Source: Actinomycetes bacterium (GTDB lineage Bacteria; Actinomycetota; Thermoleophilia; BMS3ABIN01). From it: a stretch of DNA of 64,000 nt. The position numbers were made by a program, and so were the translations under genes. The stretch spans positions 2,741 to 66,740 of the forward strand of contig JAJYLW010000011.1 in NCBI GenBank assembly GCA_021787475.1. Reading direction: 5' to 3'. A model generated the notes under the pieces. It saw only the letters and a program-made list of their open reading frames with translations, was not told where the DNA came from and did not search any database. The first letter of the stretch is position 1, and each line of letters opens with the position of its first letter. Of this stretch, positions 216 to 48,853 are shown in pieces.

Positions 216-434
216 ATGCCGGAAAGTCAACCCGGGGCCGTCTACTACCAGGTGACCATTGCCGGGCAAAATCCTGGGCCAGGATCAACAGGGCAGGTTG
301 CCAGCGGCCAGAACGTCACCCCCACCTTCCCGGGGAAGATGGGCGGCCCGGTTGCCGTATCAGCCACCGGCAACGTGATTGCCTCCCAGCGGGTGCTTTA
401 CAACGGCTACTTTAACGAGGTGCTGGGGCAGTAG
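216..434 (+). pseudogene. 3' fragment of a WYD-repeat surface protein
   Basis: VYYQVTIAG...TPTFPGKMGGPV...IASQRVLYNGYFNEVLG matches the C-terminal part of the repeats in 9069-11681; lacks the WYD/NW start and any signal peptide. Confidence 0.65.
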
Positions 435-700
435 CTGGGAAAGAACGCAGAGACCTTTCGGCCCGCATATTCCAGACCGGCTCGGGCAAATATGTAGTCG
501 CTCAAGTGTTCTGAAACTGGTGGGAGATGGAATAAGGTAGTCACTGCGCCCGCGTCTGCCGGACGCCGGCGGAAGTGTACGAGCTGCTTTTATGGGAAGA
601 CGACGAGGGTAACGCCGGCCTGTCTAACCGGGCCAAGGAAGCGCTGGCGGCGGCTGAGAATGATTCAGCCTTCGAGGGATTGACGCTGGAAGAATTGTAG
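431..700 (+). pseudogene. Decayed ORF, probably of mobile-element origin
   Basis: One frame reads ...RIFQTGSGKYVVAQVF*NWWEME*GSHCARVCRTPAEVYELLLWEDDEGNAGLSNRAKEALAAAENDSAFEGLTLEEL*; stops at 512-514 and 533-535; terminator follows. Confidence 0.4.
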
Positions 701-745
701 CAGACGCGCCGGGCAGAAGCTTAAACGGCCTCTCAGTGATTCAGG

Positions 746-776
746 GGAGGGTTTCCGGTTGGGAGCCCTCCTTTTT
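746..776 (+). terminator. Intrinsic terminator
   Basis: GGAGGGTTTCC-GGTT-GGGAGCCCTCC stem followed by T5. Confidence 0.7.
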
Positions 777-977
777 GCCTTTAATTTGCCGGCCCGACCC
801 CACGGTCCCCGACAAAAAAGCTGCCCCCGTCTCCAAGCCGCTTTATGGCTTCGCCACACTGAGCGAGCACGCGCCGAGCAGCTTTTTTCACCTGTTCGGA
901 CCGCTCGGGAGGGTTAGGCGCAAGCTCAGAAAGGCAAACAGGAGCCATGAGGACGCTCCTTTTTCTTTCTTATCCAT

Positions 978-2381
978 TCAAAAAACCTTACTTCTGAGCC
1001 CAGCCGTCCTCGGCATATGAGGATTATCTTCGGGGTGACTGATACGCGCTAGGCCAAGCGCCTGCCCATGGATTCCGGGAGCCGTTGAAAGCACCAGAGC
1101 GTCAAACAGGTCCGGACCTCTTCCCATCCGCTTCTTGGTTTCCTCTTTCAACTCGATCTGGATACGCCCGTTGCGAACACGGTACTTTATCGCCAGTATC
1201 TGCCGACGCAGCTCGGCGTCATCCGGCAAGTCAACCAGCTCATTGTGCAGCAGTTCCCGCAGGTGCCAGACCATTTCAGCTTTCAGATCGTAGAACTTGG
1301 CTGGGTCGTTGGCCTTGGCATTGGCGATGACCCCCACTACCGGGTGGTTGCGCTGCCTGAGCCGGTCGGTTACGCCGCCGCCCAAGCCAACATCGTCAAT
1401 CTTGATCGCGGCGACAGGAACATCGGTGCCCACATAACCATGTATCAGGTCCGCCGTCTGCATCGTGTCGAGCTTCTTCTTGCGGGCAACCAGATCGATA
1501 TGCAAACCCTGGCGCCGGAAAATAACGGTCTCATCGCCGCCAAACCTGGCAATATCAGCACCGTATTCCACCACTGGCCCGGAGGCGGGAATAACACGCT
1601 TCATCGCTTTGTCCACGTCGGCAAAATCAAACACCTGATCGACCGAGCCGACGGCGTTCCAGTCGCCCTCCAGGTACGCCGCCAGCAGCTCGGGCGTATC
1701 GGCATAAATTTCACGCACTGACTCGATGTAGTCATTCGACAAATAGGGGTTGTCGGATGACAACGCCGGCACATAGCCATGGCCGGGTTTGGGCGTCTCG
1801 ATAAACTCGGGTATCAGCCAACACTGCTCGGGGTTGGACGCCAGGATCGTGATGTAATTGCCCGCCGCGGCTGGCGTCCGGCCCACCCGGGCGATCGCCA
1901 TCTTGGCCGATAGCCAGTCAACCTCGCTCGCCTCATCGATAAACAGGTAACCCAGCTCTAGCGACTTTACTTTTTCTCTGTCCTTGTGATCGCCCAGGCC
2001 GCCGTAGTCGATGCGGCTGCCATTGCGGTGCAGGAAATATTGCTCCGAGACATGGTGCTGCCAGCCGGGGCGGCTAAGGATGTCAACGCGCTCCAGGAGC
2101 GTCTGCAGCGTCGTGCGTTTAAAGACCACCGACTCCTTGCGGCACATGTAGCCGCGATTTCCGGGGATTGACTCACATAGATAAACACCGTAGGCGCAGC
2201 CGAAGTAAGACTTGCCGCCGCCGAACGCGCCGCCGTAGAGGATGACAGGAGCCGGACGTTCTGAGCGTTTGGCCGCGATTACGTAAAGGGCTTGCTGCTG
2301 CCGGGGGGTCCAGGTGAAAGGACTACTAAGCCGGCGGCGCTCAAGTTCACGCATGACGGTTTTAAGAAAGAGCCGGCTCAT
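978..2381 (-). CDS. terL: Phage terminase large subunit
   Basis: Walker A YGGAFGGGKS, Walker B LFIDEASE, C-terminal RNase H-like nuclease GADIARFGGDETV. Confidence 0.88.
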   Translation of the reverse strand: MSRLFLKTVMRELERRRLSSPFTWTPRQQQALYVIAAKRSERPAPVILYGGAFGGGKSYFGCAYGVYLCESIPGNRGYMCRKESVVFKRTTLQTLLERVDILSRPGWQHHVSEQYFLHRNGSRIDYGGLGDHKDREKVKSLELGYLFIDEASEVDWLSAKMAIARVGRTPAAAGNYITILASNPEQCWLIPEFIETPKPGHGYVPALSSDNPYLSNDYIESVREIYADTPELLAAYLEGDWNAVGSVDQVFDFADVDKAMKRVIPASGPVVEYGADIARFGGDETVIFRRQGLHIDLVARKKKLDTMQTADLIHGYVGTDVPVAAIKIDDVGLGGGVTDRLRQRNHPVVGVIANAKANDPAKFYDLKAEMVWHLRELLHNELVDLPDDAELRRQILAIKYRVRNGRIQIELKEETKKRMGRGPDLFDALVLSTAPGIHGQALGLARISHPEDNPHMPRTAGLRSKVF

Positions 2382-2707
2382 TTGGCGGCCTCCGTTTTTC
2401 TGCCGATAAAACGGACTCCAAGTTCTTCCTCCAGAAGTGCAATGAGATCGGTCTCGCTCAGTCCAGAGAGATCGTCTTCAACGTCTAGCGACAAGCGATC
2501 TCCGATTAAATGCTTTCCGAGCCATTCGCGCGCCCGGGGATCACCCCGCTTTGCATCTGCCACCGCCTTTTCAACAATGGCTTTCCAGTCATCCGGGGAC
2601 ACGGCCTCGGTGAGGGTTTCCAGGTAATCCTCTTCCACTTGCCGCCGGGGCCCGCCCGGCCCGCCCGGATTTCCTTTTGTAAAACGGCCCCTGCTATCGC
2701 GTGTCAC
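2378..2707 (-). CDS. DUF5681-like protein, putative terminase small subunit
   Basis: N-terminal GRFTKGNPGGPG motif; 4-bp overlap directly upstream of terL. Confidence 0.55.
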   Translation of the reverse strand: MTRDSRGRFTKGNPGGPGGPRRQVEEDYLETLTEAVSPDDWKAIVEKAVADAKRGDPRAREWLGKHLIGDRLSLDVEDDLSGLSETDLIALLEEELGVRFIGRKTEAAK

Positions 2708-3096
2708 GCTGCCGCTCCTTTCTGGTGAGCCTCAAACAGTTTCAGCGCTAGCTTCTCCCTAAGTTCCAGGATAGCCTTGAGCCTTCCGGTGTCCAGTGAC
2801 CAGTACGCGCGGTGGAGTTCGGCCTCCAGGCGCTCCCACTCGGCAGTGTCCAGCGGGCAGCCTTTCGGCCATGCCTTGGCCAGTCGCCGGGTAGATTCGA
2901 GTAGCAGCGCGTCCGCCTCTTCCTGAAACCTAAGCAGCGAAAGAAGCTCGGGCTTGTGATTCTTGAGCGATTGCACTAGGCTGTCCGGCAGCTTCTTGCT
3001 AAATGGGGTCGGCTCCAGGATAAGATCATCGCCGTCACGTTTGACTATGAAGTAATGGTCGATGACCTGGCTAAATAGTTCAGCCGCCGGATTCAT
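2704..3096 (-). CDS. Hypothetical replication-associated phage/satellite protein
   Basis: Coupled to both neighbours by 4-bp overlaps; LKNHKPELLSLL resembles TubC-N-like small domains found next to primases. Confidence 0.55.
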   Translation of the reverse strand: MNPAAELFSQVIDHYFIVKRDGDDLILEPTPFSKKLPDSLVQSLKNHKPELLSLLRFQEEADALLLESTRRLAKAWPKGCPLDTAEWERLEAELHRAYWSLDTGRLKAILELREKLALKLFEAHQKGAAA

Positions 3097-4577
3097 ATCT
3101 GAATCGCTCCCTCTCGCTCCAGAGGTGCCAAATCATCTTCGGAGAATGGTTGCACGGACTCCCTACTCCCTCCGCTCCCTCTTAGGACTATTGAATCCTC
3201 GTTATCTTCTCCAGAGGGATCGGAGGGAGCAGAGGGACTGGGCGTAAAAGGGACTCTGTACTTTCCATAATCCTGCTTTTTGATTTCGCCTTGTTCGGCC
3301 ATTTTGGGCATCAGTTTCTTTACCGCCTCGTAATCCTGGCCGGTCTTCTTTGCAACCACCTTCGGACCTAACGCCTCAGTTGACTTACGCAGGCACTCAA
3401 TTATTTTTTGCCGAGGGACGCTTCGCATGTGGTCTTCGGCGCTGCCGTCCAGCCTTGTCCAGAGGAAGTTGTCAAATGCCAGGGCAAGGTCCACCTCCGC
3501 CAGGTCCCGCCCGGTGCAGCGTAGCCTGCCATCGGCGCGGCCTTCACCGCCCTTGGAAAGAAGCATGACCGCGTCCGCAGTTCCTGTCAGGCCGTTGGAA
3601 CCGCTGATAAGCTCCATCCAATTGTCTAAGCCCTGCCTTTGATTCGTGTGGTGGACAGCCAGCGCAGCAATCCCAAATTCATCGGCCAGAGTTTTCAGCG
3701 GCCCCATGGCGGAGTAGTCTTCATCGTAGATATTTCCGCCCTTCGACCGCTGCCTAATTCTCACAAAGACATCCACGATAACTAGCCGCGTATCTGGATG
3801 TTTCTTTAGCCAGCTTCTTAGCTTTTCGTCGCCGCCGTCATCTAATCTTGGCCAGCCGATTTCAAGGTGAAGATTATTCGGTGCGGAGTTCCCCTGAAGC
3901 AGTTTTAACCCCCTGCTTTTGAGCCGTCGCCAGTTGTCTTCAAGCGCCAGATAAAGCACACGGCCCGATGTGCGGATCCTGCAATCAAGAAACGTGGCAC
4001 GACTACCAGCCAGGTCTGCAGCCAGGTCAAAGACAAACCACGACTTACCTATTTTTGGACTGCCCGCCAGCACGGTTAGCCCTACCTCGGGCAGCAGACC
4101 CTCCACGAGCCATTCAGGTTCCGGAAAGTCGGCAGCCACGAGTTCTGCAAGGGTGTAGCCCGTTTCGGGTGCGTGGCCTACTCTGTGAAGCTCGGGCAGT
4201 TCGCCGCCTTCTTCTGCAAGCTGTATTTTCTTTTTGGCTTCCTGGATCACAGTTCGCCGGACAGAATTTTCCTTGACTATCTCGGCATACTGAGCAGCGT
4301 TTGAGGCTACCGGGCATAGATTCAGCAATGTGTGGATATAGTTAGCACCACCGGCGCTTTCCAGCTCGCCCTGAGACTTGAGATGTTCTATTAAAGTCAC
4401 CGGGTCCGCATTCTCAAGTTCAAGTATTGCCTTGAAAATTAACCTGTGGGAATCGCGGTAGAAGTCCTCCGCGACAATTTCTGCCACTTGCGATATGACG
4501 TCGGGGGTTATCAAACATGCTCCCAGACCAGACTGCTCGGCTTCCAGGCTGTGCGGCGGCACGGCTGGCTTGCTCAT
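3093..4577 (-). CDS. Replicase: DnaB N-terminal domain fused to AAA_25 (RepA-like) helicase
   Basis: PPHSLEAEQ DnaB-N motif, Walker A GSPKIGKS, LYLALED, VIVD, HHTN; start moved to ATG 4577 (ATGA overlap). Confidence 0.8.
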   Translation of the reverse strand: MSKPAVPPHSLEAEQSGLGACLITPDVISQVAEIVAEDFYRDSHRLIFKAILELENADPVTLIEHLKSQGELESAGGANYIHTLLNLCPVASNAAQYAEIVKENSVRRTVIQEAKKKIQLAEEGGELPELHRVGHAPETGYTLAELVAADFPEPEWLVEGLLPEVGLTVLAGSPKIGKSWFVFDLAADLAGSRATFLDCRIRTSGRVLYLALEDNWRRLKSRGLKLLQGNSAPNNLHLEIGWPRLDDGGDEKLRSWLKKHPDTRLVIVDVFVRIRQRSKGGNIYDEDYSAMGPLKTLADEFGIAALAVHHTNQRQGLDNWMELISGSNGLTGTADAVMLLSKGGEGRADGRLRCTGRDLAEVDLALAFDNFLWTRLDGSAEDHMRSVPRQKIIECLRKSTEALGPKVVAKKTGQDYEAVKKLMPKMAEQGEIKKQDYGKYRVPFTPSPSAPSDPSGEDNEDSIVLRGSGGSRESVQPFSEDDLAPLEREGAIQI

Positions 4578-4702
4578 CGGGAATCCCCGCCTTCCGCGCA
4601 GGCCAGCAGTTTTTCCATCAGCGCAAGTGTCTGCCGCTCCAGCTCTGCTTTCTGCCGCCCGATCTGCGCCAGTTCGATTAGGATTTTTTGAATCTCGGTC
4701 AT
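4574..4702 (-). CDS. 42-aa coiled-coil hypothetical protein (not in ORF track)
   Basis: MTEIQKILIELAQIGRQKAELERQTLALMEKLLACAEGGDSR; TAATG overlap with xis stop and ATGA overlap with rep start. Confidence 0.6.
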   Translation of the reverse strand: MTEIQKILIELAQIGRQKAELERQTLALMEKLLACAEGGDSR

Positions 4703-4905
4703 TAGAACACGCCTCCGGGGACCACGCGGCGAGCCTCCATGAATTTTTCAACGTCGCTTTTTTTATAGCGGACCGCCGTGCCGCCAACCTTTAAATACTC
4801 TGGCCCCCGCCCCAGCGCTCGCCAGTTTCGGAGCGTCGATAGCGCCAAGGCCGTCATCTCTGAAACTTGAGCCTCTGTTAGATATTTGTCTTCCAACAAA
4901 TTCAC
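4702..4905 (-). CDS. AlpA/Xis-like helix-turn-helix protein
   Basis: YLTEAQVSEMTALALSTLRNWRALGRGPEYLKVGGTAVRY, typical HTH_17/excisionase. Confidence 0.85.
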   Translation of the reverse strand: MNLLEDKYLTEAQVSEMTALALSTLRNWRALGRGPEYLKVGGTAVRYKKSDVEKFMEARRVVPGGVF

Positions 4906-4986
4906 CTCCGCGCTTGTCTTTGCTTTTCTATTTACGTAGACTAACGCACAGCGGAAAGAGCTATAAATATTTTACAAGGCCTGCAA

Positions 4987-5818
4987 ATGACGCGATTTAT
5001 AGACATCAAACGATTGAGATATGCAGGAGAATTTAAATTTCTGTGCGAACAGAAGGGCTTAAACGGCGAAGGAGTCAAGCCTCTTTACCGGCTGAGTACT
5101 CATAACCCAGCGGCGCTCTTGCCGGACTATGAATCCAAGGATTTCTTCGATCAAATGAAACATCCCTTGAACAAATGGGGACTTACGTCAAGAGGCGGGT
5201 TCCCTGTTTTTGTCCGCTATCAAGAATACTCAGCTTTTCTCAATCAAGCCGGACAAAGGCGGCCATTTCCATGAGTTTATGCGTCAATCTTTCAGGGCGG
5301 CGTGGGACTTATCTGGAATTGAGAGAAAGTGGAAGGGATACCTGCCCGGCGGCACCACCACTTCCTTAAAGAGGAATGCCTGGGAAATATTTAGGCCTCA
5401 TGCCCTTGAGTTAAAAAAACAAGAGTCTGTCCGTTCGCCGGCGGCGCTGCTTAGAACTGCCACGGCCGAATTTGAGAGGTATCTGGTCGATCCACAAAGA
5501 GGAGAGTTTCCTCTTGAAACTCAGTGGGAGCTTTACGCTGAACTGATAATCCAATCCCGATGCCTGTATCTCTGGGATAGGGCTGCCGGCGGTTGGGAAA
5601 GAAATCAGGTTTCCGAGCGCGATTTCCTTGATAACGTTTTGCCGCCGTTGCGCTTGTGTCGCTATTGTGGCGACATCTTCACACAAGCACGGGGTTACAA
5701 GATTTCCTTCCGTTGTAACAAGCACGCCTGTAAAAATGCTGAGGATCGAAGATACATGAGAAAGCGCCGGGAACTACAGGCGGCAGGCAAACCGGCGCCG
5801 GATATTAAAGGCTACTAG
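4987..5818 (+). pseudogene. Divergent regulator-like gene with C-terminal CGNR-like zinc finger, split into ORFs 4987-5274 and 5210-5818
   Basis: Two ORFs overlapping 65 bp in adjacent frames; C-terminal CRYC...F...CNKHACKN..RRYMRKRR. Confidence 0.45.
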
Positions 5819-5846
5819 CCTTAATCTTTCCAAATCCTTACAGTTG

Positions 5847-6206
5847 TTAACCGACTGCCCGTTTATGGGTATTGCTTGCCCGGCGCTCTCTTGTATTAGA
5901 AGCCGGCACAAATTTGATCTCGACTTCGCAGCCGACGGCCTGGGCGTACTTCTTTAGCGTCATCACGGATGGGGAATGTTTTCCGGCAGCCTCCAGCCGC
6001 GATACCGCGCTTTTAGTCGTTCCCATTCTCTTGGCAACTGCTTCTTGAGTCAGGCCCGCCTTTGACCGGGCGCGGAGGAGTTCGCGGACAAGGGCGTATT
6101 TATCTTCCAGTTCCTGGTACGCCTCTTTGAAGCCGGCGCGTTTTCCGGCCCGCTTAAGAAACTTCTCATGGTCATGACGCACGGGGCGATATTTAAGGTC
6201 AGCCAT
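5847..6206 (-). CDS. XRE-family HTH antitoxin (HigA-like)
   Basis: RARSKAGLTQEAVAKRMGTTKSAVSRLE; directly downstream of the toxin. Confidence 0.85.
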   Translation of the reverse strand: MADLKYRPVRHDHEKFLKRAGKRAGFKEAYQELEDKYALVRELLRARSKAGLTQEAVAKRMGTTKSAVSRLEAAGKHSPSVMTLKKYAQAVGCEVEIKFVPASNTRERRASNTHKRAVG

Positions 6207-6525
6207 TTTGCACCTCTTTCATTCTTTCCCTGGCAATCTTTAAATCACGCTCGGAAGTTTTCCGGGTTTTCTTTATGAATGCATGAAGGATAACCACGCG
6301 CTGGCCTGTGGCAAAGCAATAGCAAGCGCGCCCAATACCTTCACGTCCACGCGGCCTAAGCTCGAAAAGCCCTTTCCCCATTGCCTTTGAATGAGGCATT
6401 TTAAGATCGGGTCCGAACTCTATCAGCAGTTCCGCCAGCCGCGCGTAATCGGCCAGGATGCCTACCGGCCAGCCTTCTATCTCTGCTTCCACGCGCCGGT
6501 GGAAGTACTCGATTTCATAAGGCAT
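6199..6525 (-). CDS. RelE/ParE-superfamily toxin (Gp49/HigB-like)
   Basis: MPHSKAMGKGLFELR...ILHAFIKKTRKT; toxin-first gene order. Confidence 0.85.
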   Translation of the reverse strand: MPYEIEYFHRRVEAEIEGWPVGILADYARLAELLIEFGPDLKMPHSKAMGKGLFELRPRGREGIGRACYCFATGQRVVILHAFIKKTRKTSERDLKIARERMKEVQNG

Positions 6526-6572
6526 AAACTATGTTAGCATTTACGCTAACTTATTTCCAATTACTTCGGTTT

Positions 6573-7712
6573 CTAACCATTACCTTGCAAGGGAATTGCG
6601 TGCTGTCTTGCCGCCGCTTTAACCAACCTCCCCGCCAGCTCTGCCGCTTGCCTCAGGGCGTCATCCCGGATATGGGCGTATCGATGGGTAACGGTCTGGC
6701 CCTTGTGAGTCAGCAACCGGCTAACGATGTCCAATGAAACGTCATTGGAAACAAGCATGCTGGCAAACACGTGGCGGATTCCGTGCAGCGGCCTAAAGTC
6801 TGCCGGCAGCTCAGATTCCGCTTTCAGTTTGTTAACTAGTTTCGTGATGCTGTGGCGCTGGCCGCCGCCCACGCCAGGAAAGACATACGGGCTGCCCGTC
6901 TCTTCGGTTTCCTTGATCGTGGAAAGTAAAGCGCCGGCGTAGCTGGAAAGCGGTATCACTTCATCGCGCCCGCTCTTGGCGTCTCTCAGTACGATGTTAT
7001 TCCTGTGCCAGTCAATATCCGCCCACATTAGTTTAAACATTTCCCCGCGCCTCATGCCGGTATAGAGCGCCAGCTTCATCATGGCTGCGCCCTGGCGGTA
7101 GGGTGTCTGGTATTTGATATGACCGTCGATCACCTCAAGCAGCCTTGTCAGTTGCTCCGGGGTTAAGTCCTCGGTCTTCTGGTTGCTGACTCTTGGGAGC
7201 TGGACGGTAAACCCCGGCCCCTGGCAAAGGCCGCGCTTTGTGCCGAAGTTGATTATCCTGATCAGCAGTTGCAGCGTATGCGCTACGGTCTTTGGGGACT
7301 TGTCTTTTAGTTCACGTCGCTTAAGCCGGTCGATGCCCAGCGCCAGGATATCGGCAGGCAGAAGATGGCCGAAATATGGTTCAAGATACTTACCAAAAAG
7401 ATATTCCATCCCCTTTTCTTTGCGGCCCGGATTGGCGCGCTGATATTCCTCCCATAGCGCCGAGACTGTCCACTGCTGCTTTTTTCTGACTGCGCGGCGT
7501 TCTTGATTTGAAAGTTCCCCGCCGATTCTGCGGGCGCGTACCTGGGAGGCCTTGGCTGCCGTCATGTTATCCCGCTTCTGGCGGCCCGCCACTTCCTGCA
7601 CCTGTTTGAAAGTCCCGCCCTCACAGCGCAGGCGGTAGCTAATATAAAAAACCACGTCAGCTTCAGACTCGTACTTGTACACGCCTGGATATCTGGTTTT
7701 CGTAAGCTTCAT
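6573..7712 (-). CDS. int: Tyrosine recombinase/integrase
   Basis: Catalytic R (TGMRRGE), K, HGIR, H (LLTHK) and Y (HRYAH) intact; GGAGG RBS before ATG 7712. Confidence 0.92.
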   Translation of the reverse strand: MKLTKTRYPGVYKYESEADVVFYISYRLRCEGGTFKQVQEVAGRQKRDNMTAAKASQVRARRIGGELSNQERRAVRKKQQWTVSALWEEYQRANPGRKEKGMEYLFGKYLEPYFGHLLPADILALGIDRLKRRELKDKSPKTVAHTLQLLIRIINFGTKRGLCQGPGFTVQLPRVSNQKTEDLTPEQLTRLLEVIDGHIKYQTPYRQGAAMMKLALYTGMRRGEMFKLMWADIDWHRNNIVLRDAKSGRDEVIPLSSYAGALLSTIKETEETGSPYVFPGVGGGQRHSITKLVNKLKAESELPADFRPLHGIRHVFASMLVSNDVSLDIVSRLLTHKGQTVTHRYAHIRDDALRQAAELAGRLVKAAARQHAIPLQGNG

Positions 7713-7895
7713 GGTGCCTCCTGTTGCCATTAAGGAAAAACGTGAATGTTTGAAAATCGTCTTCCAAACACTATTCCAAACATTTTTGAAGTATATCGTG
7801 GTATAGTGGCGGAAGACAAGGGAAATGAGAAGGGCTGCGTTAGCAGGGATTTTGTGAAAAGGAGGTGAAAGACGTCAAACGGGGGAAAAGGGGAA

Positions 7896-7926
7896 TTCCC
7901 TGGTTCGAATCCAGGTACGCCCACCA
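7896..7926 (+). other. tRNA 3' fragment, putative attR core (isotype not determined)
   Basis: CCTGG-TTCGAAT-CCAGG T-arm, TACGCCC-A-CCA end; no 5' tRNA half upstream. Confidence 0.8.
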
Positions 7927-8089: not shown

Positions 8090-8356
8090 ATGATGTACGG
8101 ATGGGGCTGGGACGGAGGCGCCGGTGTTGGCTGGCTCGGCATGATATTGATGATGGTCTTTTGGATCGCAGTGGTGGTTGGTATTGTGATGCTTGTGATC
8201 TGGCTGGTGCGCCAGGCGCAGGGCGGCCACGGGGCCGGCGCCGGCCCGGCGGCGCCGGCCGGTGAAACACCTCTCGATATCCTCAAGAAAAGGTATGCCC
8301 GCGGCGAGATCGACAAGGCGGAATTTGAAGAGAAGAAAAAGGACCTGGTTTCTTAG
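8090..8356 (+). CDS. SHOCT-domain membrane protein
   Basis: TM helix plus PLDILKKRYARGEIDKAEFEEKKKDL; GGAGGT RBS. Confidence 0.85.
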   Translation: MMYGWGWDGGAGVGWLGMILMMVFWIAVVVGIVMLVIWLVRQAQGGHGAGAGPAAPAGETPLDILKKRYARGEIDKAEFEEKKKDLVS

Positions 8357-8566: not shown

Positions 8567-8857
8567 ATGATAAGGAACATGCGTGGATTTGGCCCGGGTT
8601 GGCAGGCCGCTCACCATGGCGTTGGCTCTGATCATGTTTTTGGGGTCATCTTCATGATAGCCCTGCTGGCGCTGATTGTTGTCGCCATCGTTGTTTTGAC
8701 AATGTGGTTGATCAGACACAGAAAATACCACGAAGGCACGGCTGCGGTTGCCGGCGCCGCCGGCGGGACGCCGCTTGATATTCTAAATGTGCGCTATGCC
8801 CGCGGCGAGATCGAAAAAGCCGAATACGAAGAGAAGCGCAAGGAGCTGTCAACATAG
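8567..8857 (+). CDS. SHOCT-domain membrane protein (paralog)
   Basis: TM helix plus PLDILNVRYARGEIEKAEYEEKRKEL. Confidence 0.85.
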   Translation: MIRNMRGFGPGWQAAHHGVGSDHVFGVIFMIALLALIVVAIVVLTMWLIRHRKYHEGTAAVAGAAGGTPLDILNVRYARGEIEKAEYEEKRKELST

Positions 8858-8876: not shown

Positions 8877-8936
8877 TTAGAATCTATCTCAATAGGCTGT
8901 TCGCAGCAGAATATGCTTTTTGAGATAGATTCTTAA
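8877..8936. repeat. MITE/REP-like inverted repeat
   Basis: Perfect 14-bp arms AGAATCTATCTCAA (8879-8892) and TTGAGATAGATTCT (8920-8933). Confidence 0.7.
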
Positions 8937-9068: not shown

Positions 9069-11681
9069 ATGCCTTTTTATTTCTTCCCAAAAACTGGCAG
9101 GCATTCTCCCGGGCAAAACCTCTCCCGCACCGCGGCGGCGATTTTCGCCTTTCTCCTGGCCGCCCTTTTTTTTGCCGTGCTGGCCGCGCCGGCCCACGCC
9201 GGCACGCTGTGGGAAGAAGACTGGACGCAACACAATCAGGACAGTTGGACTCTCTCCACTCAAACAAATCCAAACGCGCCCACGGATAACTGGAACCTGC
9301 ATACCTACAATCCCAACGTCGGCGGCAGCGGCAGCTCATATGATTCGTTTAAATGGGGAAACGCCGGCGGGGACGAGTACCTGCAGATGCAGGGAGTAAG
9401 CTGGGGGATCGAGTCAAAGCAGGCCTTTAACAAGGACACGCCCATCGACGTCGATACCAAAGTCAGCACCCAGCCCGCCAACTCTAAGACCACCACCTGC
9501 TTTGGCGGCGTCACCATCTACGACGGCGAGAGCGGTTACGAGGAGATCGCCCTGCAGGATGCCGGCGACGGCAATGGCCTCAGGGCGGTTGCCGTCTGGG
9601 ACGCCGGCGGCCCCGCCCATGACCAGTCGATGGCGCTTCCCTCCGTGCCCGGTTTTTCCAACAGCAACCTCTCCGAAGGCGTGTTTTACGACCTGCGCCT
9701 GGTCTACGACGGCCAGGGGCACACGCAGTATTGGGTGAATGGAAATCTGCTCTGGACCAACAGCACGGCCCCGCTGGATTCAAACCCGGACATCTTCTTG
9801 CTCTCGGTTGAGCTAAACTCCGCAGCCGGTTCAAGTGACTGGAATACGCCCGATGACACGCCCTATCAGGTGCAGACCGACTTTAAAAAGGTGACCGTCA
9901 ACGGCTACTACAACCTGTTCAGCAACACCACCCATGTCAACCTGCTTGACCAGCCCGGTCTCGTGAACGTTAATGCGGACCCCGAGTTTGGCCAGAACTG
10001 CGGCACCTACGAGCAGTGCGATTACCTGCAGCTGGCAACGGATCAGTCCATGGGGATGTACTTCGACCCATCCGGCTACACTCTGTCGCCGGTAATTGAC
10101 ATCACGAAATATACCGCCCGGTACCCCGGCATCAGATGGGGGGAGGTGCTGACAACCACCGCCTTAAACGGCCAGGACCTTTACGTCCAGGTGCTCCAGC
10201 CGGGCGCCGGACTGGTGCCGGACTCGGATCTGCCCGGCAACTCGCGCGGGTTTCGCGGAAATTCGATTGTCCTTTCCGGCCTGGATATTCACAAATATCC
10301 CCAACTGCAGTTGATGGCAACTTTCAGATCATTATGTTACCCGTGCCAAAAAAGCCCGCTGCTGCTTGACTGGACGCTTACTTTTGGCACGCGCTCCTTC
10401 TTCACCTGGTACGATCAGCAAAGCCCGGGGATGAGGGACTGGCTGCTTGCGGCCGACCCCAGCTACTACGGCGGCGAGGCCCACTTCTGGGCCACGTTGG
10501 GAAATCCGCCGCTGGCGGGGGCCTACCTGGACTCCAAGCACGGCAAGTCGGCGTTCACGACCTGGCAGGGAAAGATGGGGGGGCCGGTGACCGTCAATAA
10601 GCTGTCGGCGCTGCCGGCGGTAATCTCCCAAAGGGTGCTTTACGGCAACTCGCTGGAGGAGACGCCGGCGGTTGACGAAAGCAGGCTCTCCGACCAGTAT
10701 TACTGGACCTGGTACGATGAGGCCAGTCCCGGCTTTAAAAACTGGGTGTTGATCGGAAACCCGAGCACGACCGACGCCGTCACGGCCCAAATATCATTTT
10801 TTGACAGGGTATCGCAAACCCGGGTCACAGGGACTTATAACATCGCCCCCGGAGCGAGGGTGACTCCTGATTTCCCCGGCCGGATGGGCGGCCCCGTCCT
10901 GGTGAACGCCTGGAAGCAGGGTTCGCCGGGCGCCCCCGAGAATGTCATTGCTTCCCAGCGCGTGACAACCGGAAACGGCGCCGCCTTTAATGAGGTGGGA
11001 GGCATTCCCGCCGGGCAGTACTCGGAGCTCGGAAACGATTATTACTGGACTTGGTACGACAACCAGAGCGGCGGCGCCCAGAACTGGGTGCTGGTGGCCA
11101 ATCCCGGCAGCGCAACGGTCTACTATCAGATCAGCATCGCCGGCGGCTGCCAGAACGGCGACCCCCGCCGCTGCCTGTCCGGACCGCTTGCCGCCGGCCA
11201 GGAAGTGACGCCCACCTTCCCGGGAATCATGGGAGGCCCGGTGGAAGTGCAGGCCTGGTCGGACGGCGTTGGCGGCGGCCAGCCCGCCAACGTGATCGCT
11301 TCCCAGAGAAGCATCTGGGGCCCCTCGTTTGAAGAGGTGCCGGGCTTCCGTTCGGCAGCCCTTTCCTCTTCATATGACTGGACCTGGTACGACAATCTTT
11401 CTCTCGGCTCCCTCAACTGGATCCTGCTCGCCAATACGGAAAACCAGTACGTCACTGCGGACGTCTACATCGGGGGAGTTTACAGGGGGTCTTACACGCT
11501 GGCGCCCAAGGGAACGCCGGGCTCGATGGCCTATCCCCGCTACCCGGGCGTCATGGGCGGCCTGGTGGAAGTCCAGGCCCACTCGCCGGGCGGCGCCACG
11601 CCGCAAAATATTTTAGCCTCGCAGCGGGTGACCTGGAGCGGTTATTTTAACGAGGTCCAGGGAACGGTTCTGAGCAAGTAA
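9069..11681 (+). CDS. Secreted 870-aa protein, beta-rich N-terminus plus four C-terminal WYD repeats
   Basis: Signal peptide ending AHA; four copies of [FY]xWYD...[ND]W[VI]L...MGG[PL]V...SQR...[FL]xE. Confidence 0.85.
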   Translation: MPFYFFPKTGRHSPGQNLSRTAAAIFAFLLAALFFAVLAAPAHAGTLWEEDWTQHNQDSWTLSTQTNPNAPTDNWNLHTYNPNVGGSGSSYDSFKWGNAGGDEYLQMQGVSWGIESKQAFNKDTPIDVDTKVSTQPANSKTTTCFGGVTIYDGESGYEEIALQDAGDGNGLRAVAVWDAGGPAHDQSMALPSVPGFSNSNLSEGVFYDLRLVYDGQGHTQYWVNGNLLWTNSTAPLDSNPDIFLLSVELNSAAGSSDWNTPDDTPYQVQTDFKKVTVNGYYNLFSNTTHVNLLDQPGLVNVNADPEFGQNCGTYEQCDYLQLATDQSMGMYFDPSGYTLSPVIDITKYTARYPGIRWGEVLTTTALNGQDLYVQVLQPGAGLVPDSDLPGNSRGFRGNSIVLSGLDIHKYPQLQLMATFRSLCYPCQKSPLLLDWTLTFGTRSFFTWYDQQSPGMRDWLLAADPSYYGGEAHFWATLGNPPLAGAYLDSKHGKSAFTTWQGKMGGPVTVNKLSALPAVISQRVLYGNSLEETPAVDESRLSDQYYWTWYDEASPGFKNWVLIGNPSTTDAVTAQISFFDRVSQTRVTGTYNIAPGARVTPDFPGRMGGPVLVNAWKQGSPGAPENVIASQRVTTGNGAAFNEVGGIPAGQYSELGNDYYWTWYDNQSGGAQNWVLVANPGSATVYYQISIAGGCQNGDPRRCLSGPLAAGQEVTPTFPGIMGGPVEVQAWSDGVGGGQPANVIASQRSIWGPSFEEVPGFRSAALSSSYDWTWYDNLSLGSLNWILLANTENQYVTADVYIGGVYRGSYTLAPKGTPGSMAYPRYPGVMGGLVEVQAHSPGGATPQNILASQRVTWSGYFNEVQGTVLSK

Positions 11682-40416: not shown

Positions 40417-40500
40417 AGCAGGATCATTAAGTAAGAATCTGCCTCAAAGGGCTATCGTGCGAGGCTGAGCGAAGGCCATAGGCGACGCCAATTTGAAGAG

Positions 40501-48817: not shown

Positions 48818-48853
48818 TTTTGAGACAGTCTCTTATTTTGAGATGGTCTCTTA
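48818..48853. repeat. 18-bp tandem repeat with internal palindromes
   Basis: TTTTGAGACAGTCTCTTA / TTTTGAGATGGTCTCTTA. Confidence 0.75.

Follow-up and report, generated by a model that had tools for sequence, protein, structure and literature searches.

A probable PICI-like satellite from Thermoleophilia that carries a small-terminase-like gene and a large terminase gene without capsid genes

We analyzed a stretch of 64,000 nucleotides, called the window throughout, from an Actinomycetes bacterium of the Thermoleophilia (GTDB BMS3ABIN01; GenBank assembly GCA_021787475.1, contig JAJYLW010000011.1, positions 2,741 to 66,740 of the forward strand). An integrated element of about 7.5 kb, spanning window positions 466–7926, carries a complete large terminase gene (TerL) directly preceded by a gene whose DUF5681-like product occupies the small-terminase (TerS) position, and no portal or capsid gene follows. 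We think it reasonably probable that the element belongs to a family of phage satellites resembling the phage-inducible chromosomal islands (PICIs), and that it is a variant with a TerS-like gene, TerL and no capsid genes. An earlier note on this DNA had offered two readings: a new satellite architecture that loads helper procapsids with its own packaging motor, or a truncated capsid-forming PICI (cfPICI) or prophage. The anatomy behind the first is borne out, as TerS genes occupy this slot in relatives and the nearest TerL is that of a phage from the same sample; the loading of helper procapsids is what this anatomy suggests. The second is contradicted by the backbone genes that flank the terminase pair and by two-ended relatives (L097, L100 and L221) that lack portal, capsid and TerL genes.

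On the minus strand, the genes run in the order integrase (int), Gp49/HTH (helix-turn-helix) toxin-antitoxin pair, HTH_17 excisionase (xis), DnaB_N+AAA_25 helicase (rep), 130-aa gene, DUF5681-like gene and TerL. By the coordinates of their open reading frames (ORFs), rep and the 130-aa gene, the 130-aa gene and the DUF5681-like gene, and the latter and TerL each overlap by 4 nt. The earlier note had described this module, including a small ORF, and its tight coupling by overlaps; the genes lie where it placed them, the family matches agree, and the overlaps run from rep through TerL. Its extent of 978–7926 stands at the right end. At the left, the element continues beyond TerL to 466.

The same backbone is common to four related lineages, L097/98/99, L100, L220 and L221, whose hosts are Thermoleophilia/Actinomycetota from mine-drainage and similar samples. 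It consists of int, a divergent gene in the regulator position, an HTH_17 xis, rep, the 130-aa gene, a variable slot and a reverse-oriented EXLDI-like gene of 123 aa, here called the terminal gene. Order is the same in the window copy, and amino acid identity to it is 56–65% for the integrases of L097 and L100 (dN/dS 0.12), 68–77% for Rep of L097, L100 and L220 (dN/dS 0.10–0.13), 39–62% for the 130-aa protein (E 1e-31 for the L097 match) and 65% for the terminal gene (tblastn, E 2e-27; by blastn, 74% to L220 and 69% to L221). The slot of the window copy and its borders comprise the following features.

978–2381, minus strand: TerL (phrog_2, 1e-37), full length, 467 codons without lesion
2378–2707, minus strand: DUF5681-like protein of 109 aa in the small-terminase position (Pfam DUF5681, E 2e-5)
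2704–3096, minus strand: 130-aa backbone protein, with homologues after rep in L097, L220 and L221 that are 56–62% identical to it over the aligned columns
781–948, minus strand: ORF of 55 aa that follows TerL and has AAGGAG as its ribosome-binding site
743–774, plus strand: intrinsic terminator of the terminal gene, 14-bp stem, conserved with L221 and L220
467–700, plus strand: pseudogene remnant of the EXLDI-like 123-aa terminal gene (residues 46–123, two in-frame stops)

The intact TerL motifs reported in the earlier note are confirmed: the protein has its full length, no invariant column is lost in an alignment of 19 sequences, and at the C-terminus the match to its closest relative runs to the end of the latter. 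The Pfam Terminase_3 match (18.8 bits) lies under that family's cut-off. The closest relative, P0002, is encoded on phage contig L005 from the same sample (79% identity, dN/dS 0.09); over residues 46–436, identity is 78–96%. L005 has the layout of a phage head and tail region, with a small ORF, TerL, a Mu-type portal, a Mu-like protease, a gpT-like capsid gene and tail tube genes, and TerL is the sole sequence that it shares with the window. Portal-sized and capsid genes also follow TerL in six more relatives of 45–50% identity. A crude census of TerL relatives with at least 2.5 kb of downstream DNA gave the same picture: nearly all of about 75 loci have a same-strand ORF of 330–850 aa within 1.5 kb, and the window is a clear exception. 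The DUF5681-like protein likewise has its counterparts in phages. In phage contigs, ORFs of 37–46% identity, and in L011 a DUF5681 protein, stand directly 5' of TerL and overlap it; a portal-sized ORF comes next in each. In one phage paper, DUF5681 appears as a virion-proteome match only. On these comparisons, the terminase genes are of phage origin.

What lies beyond TerL could be followed on L001, an ENA assembly contig from the same metagenome that is 99.95% identical to the window and reaches 2.8 kb past its left edge. Downstream of TerL come the 55-aa ORF, for which there is no family match, an opposite-strand ORF of 72 aa, a 608-aa DUF2334 gene and a DUF4064 gene; the DUF2334 family is widespread and chromosomal. 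With the terminator and the terminal-gene remnant included, the order is 55-aa ORF, terminator, remnant, host genes. The earlier note had stated that the element lacks portal and capsid genes; there is none 3' of TerL, either in the window or in the further 2.8 kb. Comparison of the L005 head genes with the window by tblastx gave no portal or capsid remnant.

Synteny between L001 and L220 shows where the terminase genes sit. The two match over rep (74%) and the 130-aa gene (76%), part at a gap, and match again over the terminal gene (74%). In the window, the gap holds the DUF5681-like gene, TerL and the 55-aa ORF; because backbone genes flank both sides, the 130-aa gene on one and the terminal-gene remnant on the other, we place the terminase pair in the variable slot. 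The slot of L220 encodes a 163-aa Terminase_4 small subunit (79.7 bits), and that of L097/98/99 has a 63-aa ORF and a 185-aa protein with a weak HTH_Tnp_1 match (phrog_5536). Over 136 aa, the 185-aa protein shares 40% identity (E 1e-32) with a 175-aa ORF of L005 that overlaps the TerL start and is, by position, the TerS of that phage. The terminase of one phage lineage is split over two members of the family, of which L097 has its TerS and the window its TerL. The protein in the TerS position of the window differs in type from the L097/L005 TerS.

No portal or capsid gene was found in any of the four related lineages. Three of the four carry tRNA-derived repeats at both ends and measure 6.4–9.2 kb. 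L097/L098 (about 8.1 kb) has an intact tRNA-Gly(CCC) at one end and, beside int at the other, a repeat of about 55 nt from the 3' part of that tRNA; L100 (about 9.2 kb) has tRNA-Ala-like sequence at both ends; and L221 (6.4 kb), which was located through its 130-aa protein, has a perfect 48-nt repeat in tRNA-Lys(CTT). These three elements encode no portal, capsid or TerL. Near each of their ends is a pair of direct motifs of 10–12 nt, 12 nt apart, which we read as putative arm-type integrase sites. The terminal gene, of 123 aa in L220 and L221 and 97 aa in L097, has a weak match to the EXLDI family and adjoins the far att region in all three, with arm repeats or the tRNA copy within a few hundred nucleotides of its start. 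The earlier note had named, as what would count against a new architecture, att-bounded relatives with portal and capsid genes right after terL. None of those examined has them, and the TerL relatives that do carry a portal are phages that share TerL alone.

Searches with Rep in metagenome, genome and viral collections otherwise returned only distant AAA_25 relatives of at most 43% identity, and TerL lies near rep in just two of these distant loci, L146/L222 and L206. Among the distant Reps (31–36% identity) are those of L225–L238, IMG/VR contigs of 8–11 kb in which a profile search gave no TerL and which may be further small satellite-like elements. A cysteine-rich, zinc-finger-like ORF (motif KRIRLKCLDC...) is conserved between L100 (4419–4640), where it comes right after rep, and L221 (10376–10560), where it comes after the post-rep 129-aa gene; it is absent from the window copy.

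The remaining backbone genes and the integrase-side end of the window copy are as follows.

3093–4577, minus strand: replication helicase of 494 aa, DnaB N-terminal domain (2e-26) and AAA_25/RepA-like ATPase (7e-28)
4574–4702, minus strand: small ORF of 42 aa that lies between xis and rep and is among the genes called in L001
4702–4905, minus strand: excisionase/AlpA-like HTH_17 protein (PF12728 2.6e-9, phrog_66 2e-9, Phage_AlpA 7e-4)
4987–5818, plus strand: split homologue of the L097 443-aa divergent gene, in the master-regulator position (tblastn)
5847–6206, minus strand: HTH_3 (XRE-type) antitoxin/regulator (PF01381 2e-12, phrog_1373 2e-25), overlapping the toxin gene by 8 nt
6199–6525, minus strand: Gp49/HigB-like toxin (PF05973 7e-25, phrog_2523 3e-33)
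6573–7730, minus strand: tyrosine integrase, 379–385 aa (PF00589 2e-24, phrog_1 7e-48)
7747–7782, minus strand: putative arm-type integrase sites, TGTTTGGAA twice (7762–7782), 12 nt apart, with an inverted copy that has 1 mismatch
7897–7926, plus strand: integrase-proximal att core, a 30-nt tRNA 3' end (T arm, acceptor, CCA) directed outward from the element

No primase domain was seen. The HTH_17 excisionase occupies the same position in L097, L100 and L220, and a small ORF fills the gap between xis and rep in L099 and L220 as well. The Phage_AlpA match of the excisionase (19.9 bits) is below the cut-off of 21. The small toxin gene and the HTH antitoxin gene adjoin and overlap as in a type II pair (HigB/Gp49 with XRE), and they are placed between int and the homologue of the 443-aa gene. 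The regulator that the earlier note had listed in parentheses is the ORF at 5210–5818 on the plus strand. This ORF is half of a split and internally deleted homologue, with residues 1–92 in one frame (ORF 4987–5274) and residues 174–356 in another (ORF 5210–5818); about 81 residues are lost from the interior and 87 from the C-terminal end. The gene at 4987–5818 is probably a pseudogene.

Taken together, the gene content leads us to infer that the family consists of phage satellites of the PICI kind, dependent on helpers, and that the window variant loads helper procapsids. L005-like phages would be the best candidate helper lineage. In such a life cycle, infection by the helper or its induction would derepress the element, Int and Xis would excise it, and Rep would replicate it. 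The private terminase would then recognize the element's DNA and pump it into procapsids of an L005-like helper, whose tails would finish the particle.

Several observations weigh against this reading. Induction, excision, replication and encapsidation are all predictions from gene content. With its far att site missing, the window copy cannot demonstrate mobility; depth of run X1 over the element equals that of its flanks (12–20x), and no excision or circle joints were seen in the assembled (Logan) contigs of three DNA runs. The DUF5681 match, at 25.4 bits, falls short of the Pfam cut-off of 27.5, and a single-sequence structure model of the protein (pLDDT 60.7) was too poor for use. Identity of TerL to its L005 counterpart drops to 47% over the first 45 residues and 35% over the last 31, which leaves its compatibility with the L005 partner proteins uncertain. 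The element has no capsid-size-redirection gene, so that at about 7.5 kb it would need to be packaged as a multimer, or the helper capsid would be mostly empty. The slot is not strictly for packaging, given that L221 has only small ORFs there and no terminase, and L100 has a zinc-finger ORF, an S49-type protease-like protein, a methyltransferase-Mrr fusion and DUF3800. Finally, the family in the databases amounts to five lineages, of which the window copy alone has TerL, so the combination TerS+TerL may have been acquired just once and recently.

The alternative that fares best, which we nevertheless regard as unlikely, is that the element is no satellite and instead a self-replicating integrative island of the integrative and mobilizable element (IME) type, whose slot collects passengers and whose terminase is cargo, possibly serving packaging interference or decoy defence. 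The mixed slot contents speak for such an island: L100 has methyltransferase-Mrr and DUF3800, L097 a sigma70_r4 protein, and L221 nothing. The toxin-antitoxin pair elsewhere in the element fits it too, and no sign of encapsidation was seen. However, terminase subunits stand at the same place in three of the five lineages, and two of them come from one phage lineage. PADLOC returned no defence-system match for TerL, the DUF5681-like protein, the 130-aa protein or the other backbone genes. Nor did we see a relaxase, FtsK/Tra or any other conjugation or mobilization gene in any family member, so the island would have no transfer route unless phages provide it.

We consider it less likely still that the TerS-like/TerL pair is a recent, accidental and functionless capture from a phage, on its way to decay. 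Such an accident would explain why TerL is found in a single family member and why homology to L005 is restricted to the TerL gene, and the window copy bears three other lesions. Against it, chance junctions rarely make overlaps of exactly 4 nt, and here they link rep, the 130-aa gene, the DUF5681-like gene and TerL in succession. TerL is moreover 21% diverged from its closest relative and still lesion-free over 467 codons, with a dN/dS of 0.09. Full length, intact motifs, low dN/dS and overlaps with backbone genes indicate that TerL has been kept functional.

Least probable is a prophage or capsid-forming PICI cut just past terL with loss of its head and tail genes: although nearly all TerL relatives with enough downstream DNA have a portal-sized ORF within about 1.5 kb and the terL-side end does carry a genuine deletion, the slot is bounded on both sides and the deletion is confined to the terminal gene and att region, the terminal gene and its terminator lie 200 nt past TerL and are oriented as in L097, L220 and L221, tblastx against L005 gave no portal or capsid remnant, and the two-ended relatives measure 6.4–9.2 kb and lack structural genes.

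The deletion itself can be described closely, and the earlier note was right about decay at the left end. At the nucleotide level, homology to L220 and L221 ceases at L001 position 10409, which is window position 466, and we take this to be the breakpoint; in run X1 the junction lies within one unbranched unitig and shows no variant. The remnant keeps its terminator on the TerL-facing side, both being about 200 nt past TerL. By comparison with the relatives, the loss is limited to codons 1–45 of the terminal gene, the arm repeats and the far att together with the tRNA expected to carry it. Because the far att is gone, normal att x att excision is no longer possible, and the window copy, as its sequence stands, is an immobilized fossil of the satellite type that we favor. 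The decay is probably recent, since the remaining genes (int, xis, rep, the 130-aa gene, the DUF5681-like gene and TerL) are all intact. A second partial copy of the terminal gene, comprising the terminator and the 3' end and 79–93% identical, lies at L001 12853–12981, about 2.0–2.1 kb left of window base 1, with the DUF2334 gene on one side and the DUF4064 gene on the other. Another element of the family may have left it as a scar, or it may have arisen by local duplication.

At the other end, the 30-nt att core occurs once in the window (up to 3 mismatches allowed) and has a weak, partial Rfam tRNA match. In run X1, it is a graph repeat that other contigs link to GGTTAGAGC...CTGATAAGG..., an Ile-GAT anticodon arm. 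The tRNA hence looks like tRNA-Ile(GAT), an intact copy of which would, if it matches the core, terminate in CCTGGTTCGAATCCAGGTACGCCCACCA. ARAGORN found no whole tRNA in the window or L001, and exact and near-exact matching found no second att copy. Neither the window nor L001 has another pair like the TGTTTGGAA arm pair, so that of the tRNA repeats and paired arm motifs present at both ends of the relatives, the window copy retains the integrase-side core and arm pair only. Two repeats were tried as att or empty site and rejected: the 34-nt D7 (L001 1940/12777) is a dispersed hairpin repeat with a metagenome depth above 400, and the 69-nt D2 (L001 10099/12853) is the terminator with the 3' end of the terminal gene. 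A search for an empty site by synteny gave nothing, as flanking DUF2334 homologues share no neighbors with the window.

Some further features lie around the element. Just outside the att fragment, two tandem SHOCT-domain genes (8090–8356 and 8567–8857, plus strand) have a 90-nt block in common (8258–8347 vs 8759–8848, 74% identity). Downstream of them, at 8877–8935, is a hairpin repeat with a 16-bp stem (TAAGAATCTATCTCAA ... TTGAGATAGATTCTAA), also present at 40432 and 48818–48853 and, as part-copies, elsewhere, including L001 12777–12810; its word depth in run X1, from hundreds to thousands, marks it as a dispersed palindromic repeat of the community or genome. On the far side, the 72-aa ORF (216–434, plus strand) is about 80% identical to a recurrent C-terminal domain of a 1343-aa secreted Pro-kumamolisin/BNR protein of L097 and resembles part of the window's 870-aa protein (9069–11681). 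Its final 30 nt are a very high-depth metagenome repeat, and the ORF may represent either a domain encoded by itself or a piece of a former gene. Upstream of the DUF2334 gene, an AT-rich divergent promoter region contains a perfect 15-nt tandem duplication (ACTCTTTCTGCCAGA twice, 109–138).

To our knowledge, no satellites have been characterized in this uncultured actinobacterial lineage. The family provides a natural comparison set, in which one backbone is combined with no terminase, with one of two TerS types, or with a TerS-like gene and TerL. As two of the slot genes trace to one co-occurring phage lineage, a helper-satellite pairing would become testable here. For annotation, the family suggests that a terminase alone is no ground for filing such islands as "defective prophage"; in the window, what is shared with the phage L005 is TerL only, and non-phage backbone lies on both sides of the terminase pair.

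PICIs are described as carrying int, a regulator, a pri-rep gene, often a capsid-morphogenesis gene, and TerS (SatelliteFinder, PMC10085698). Like PICIs such as the SaPIs and EcCICFT073, the window element is smaller than 10 kb and has the order int, gene in the regulator position, excisionase/AlpA-like HTH gene, replication gene and packaging gene, with an integrase (PF00589 and phrog_1) at one end, accessory genes between int and the putative regulation module, and no lysis or tail genes; its TerS-only relatives have their terminase gene in the relative position of PICI terS. It differs in having a full TerL, where PICIs have no other phage structural or packaging genes, in using a DnaB_N+AAA_25 helicase in place of the PICI pri-rep types, in lacking a capsid-morphogenesis gene, in its Thermoleophilia host and its integration into the 3' part of a tRNA gene, and in that its helper dependence is a prediction.

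Two distant loci resemble the window in having a terminase without a head module. L146 1–9400/L222, one element found in a Hyphomicrobium metagenome-assembled genome and in an IMG/VR contig, encodes a P4-type integrase, PrimPol, an AAA_25 helicase, an endonuclease VII-like protein, an Sf6-type TerS, TerL (phrog_2, 5e-21), a 247-aa gene product, a second integrase and AbiEi/AbiEii, with no portal or capsid; it is a candidate for an independent analogue of this layout in Alphaproteobacteria. L206 4800–19650 (Lachnospiraceae), about 15 kb beside a tRNA-Pro, has an integrase, an AAA_25 rep, TerS, TerL, three small ORFs and a 1109-aa tape-measure protein. It too has no portal or capsid gene. Because the tape-measure gene is retained, a siphovirus prophage with an internal deletion is the better reading, and an odd satellite the other one.

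In the literature searched, we found no description of a satellite with TerS and TerL and without capsid genes. With L005, the window element has in common a TerL of 79% identity, and through the L097 slot protein the family also shares TerS (40%); unlike the element, L005 has a full phage morphogenesis module, and TerL is all that the two sequences share. Among described elements, cfPICIs are also close; in these, capsid, portal, protease and head-tail adaptor/connector genes accompany terL (PMC10085698; bioRxiv 10.1101/2022.09.08.507074). Both they and the window element combine a satellite backbone with a large terminase gene and a small-terminase gene (in the window, a TerS-like one) acquired from phages, and the window's TerL matches phrog_2. 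The capsid, portal, protease and adaptor/connector genes of cfPICIs are absent from the window element, whose slot has no room for them. More tentatively, and at somewhat less than even chances, we suggest that these elements represent an undescribed family of tRNA-integrating satellites of Thermoleophilia with an exchangeable packaging slot. The slot would have received three unrelated small-terminase types and, once, a whole terminase from L005-type phages with Mu-like heads, yielding a "terminase-only" member that takes both procapsids and tails from its helper; together with the Hyphomicrobium element, this would amount to a broad strategy that is missing from current satellite classifications. 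Terminase-bearing satellites have been divided into two kinds, those with the small terminase only and those with a terminase and a whole capsid module (PMC10085698). If our reading is true, a full packaging enzyme without a shell would be a third satellite strategy beside these two: the packaging motor could be privatized on its own, and how a foreign TerL stays compatible with the portal of a helper would become a question.

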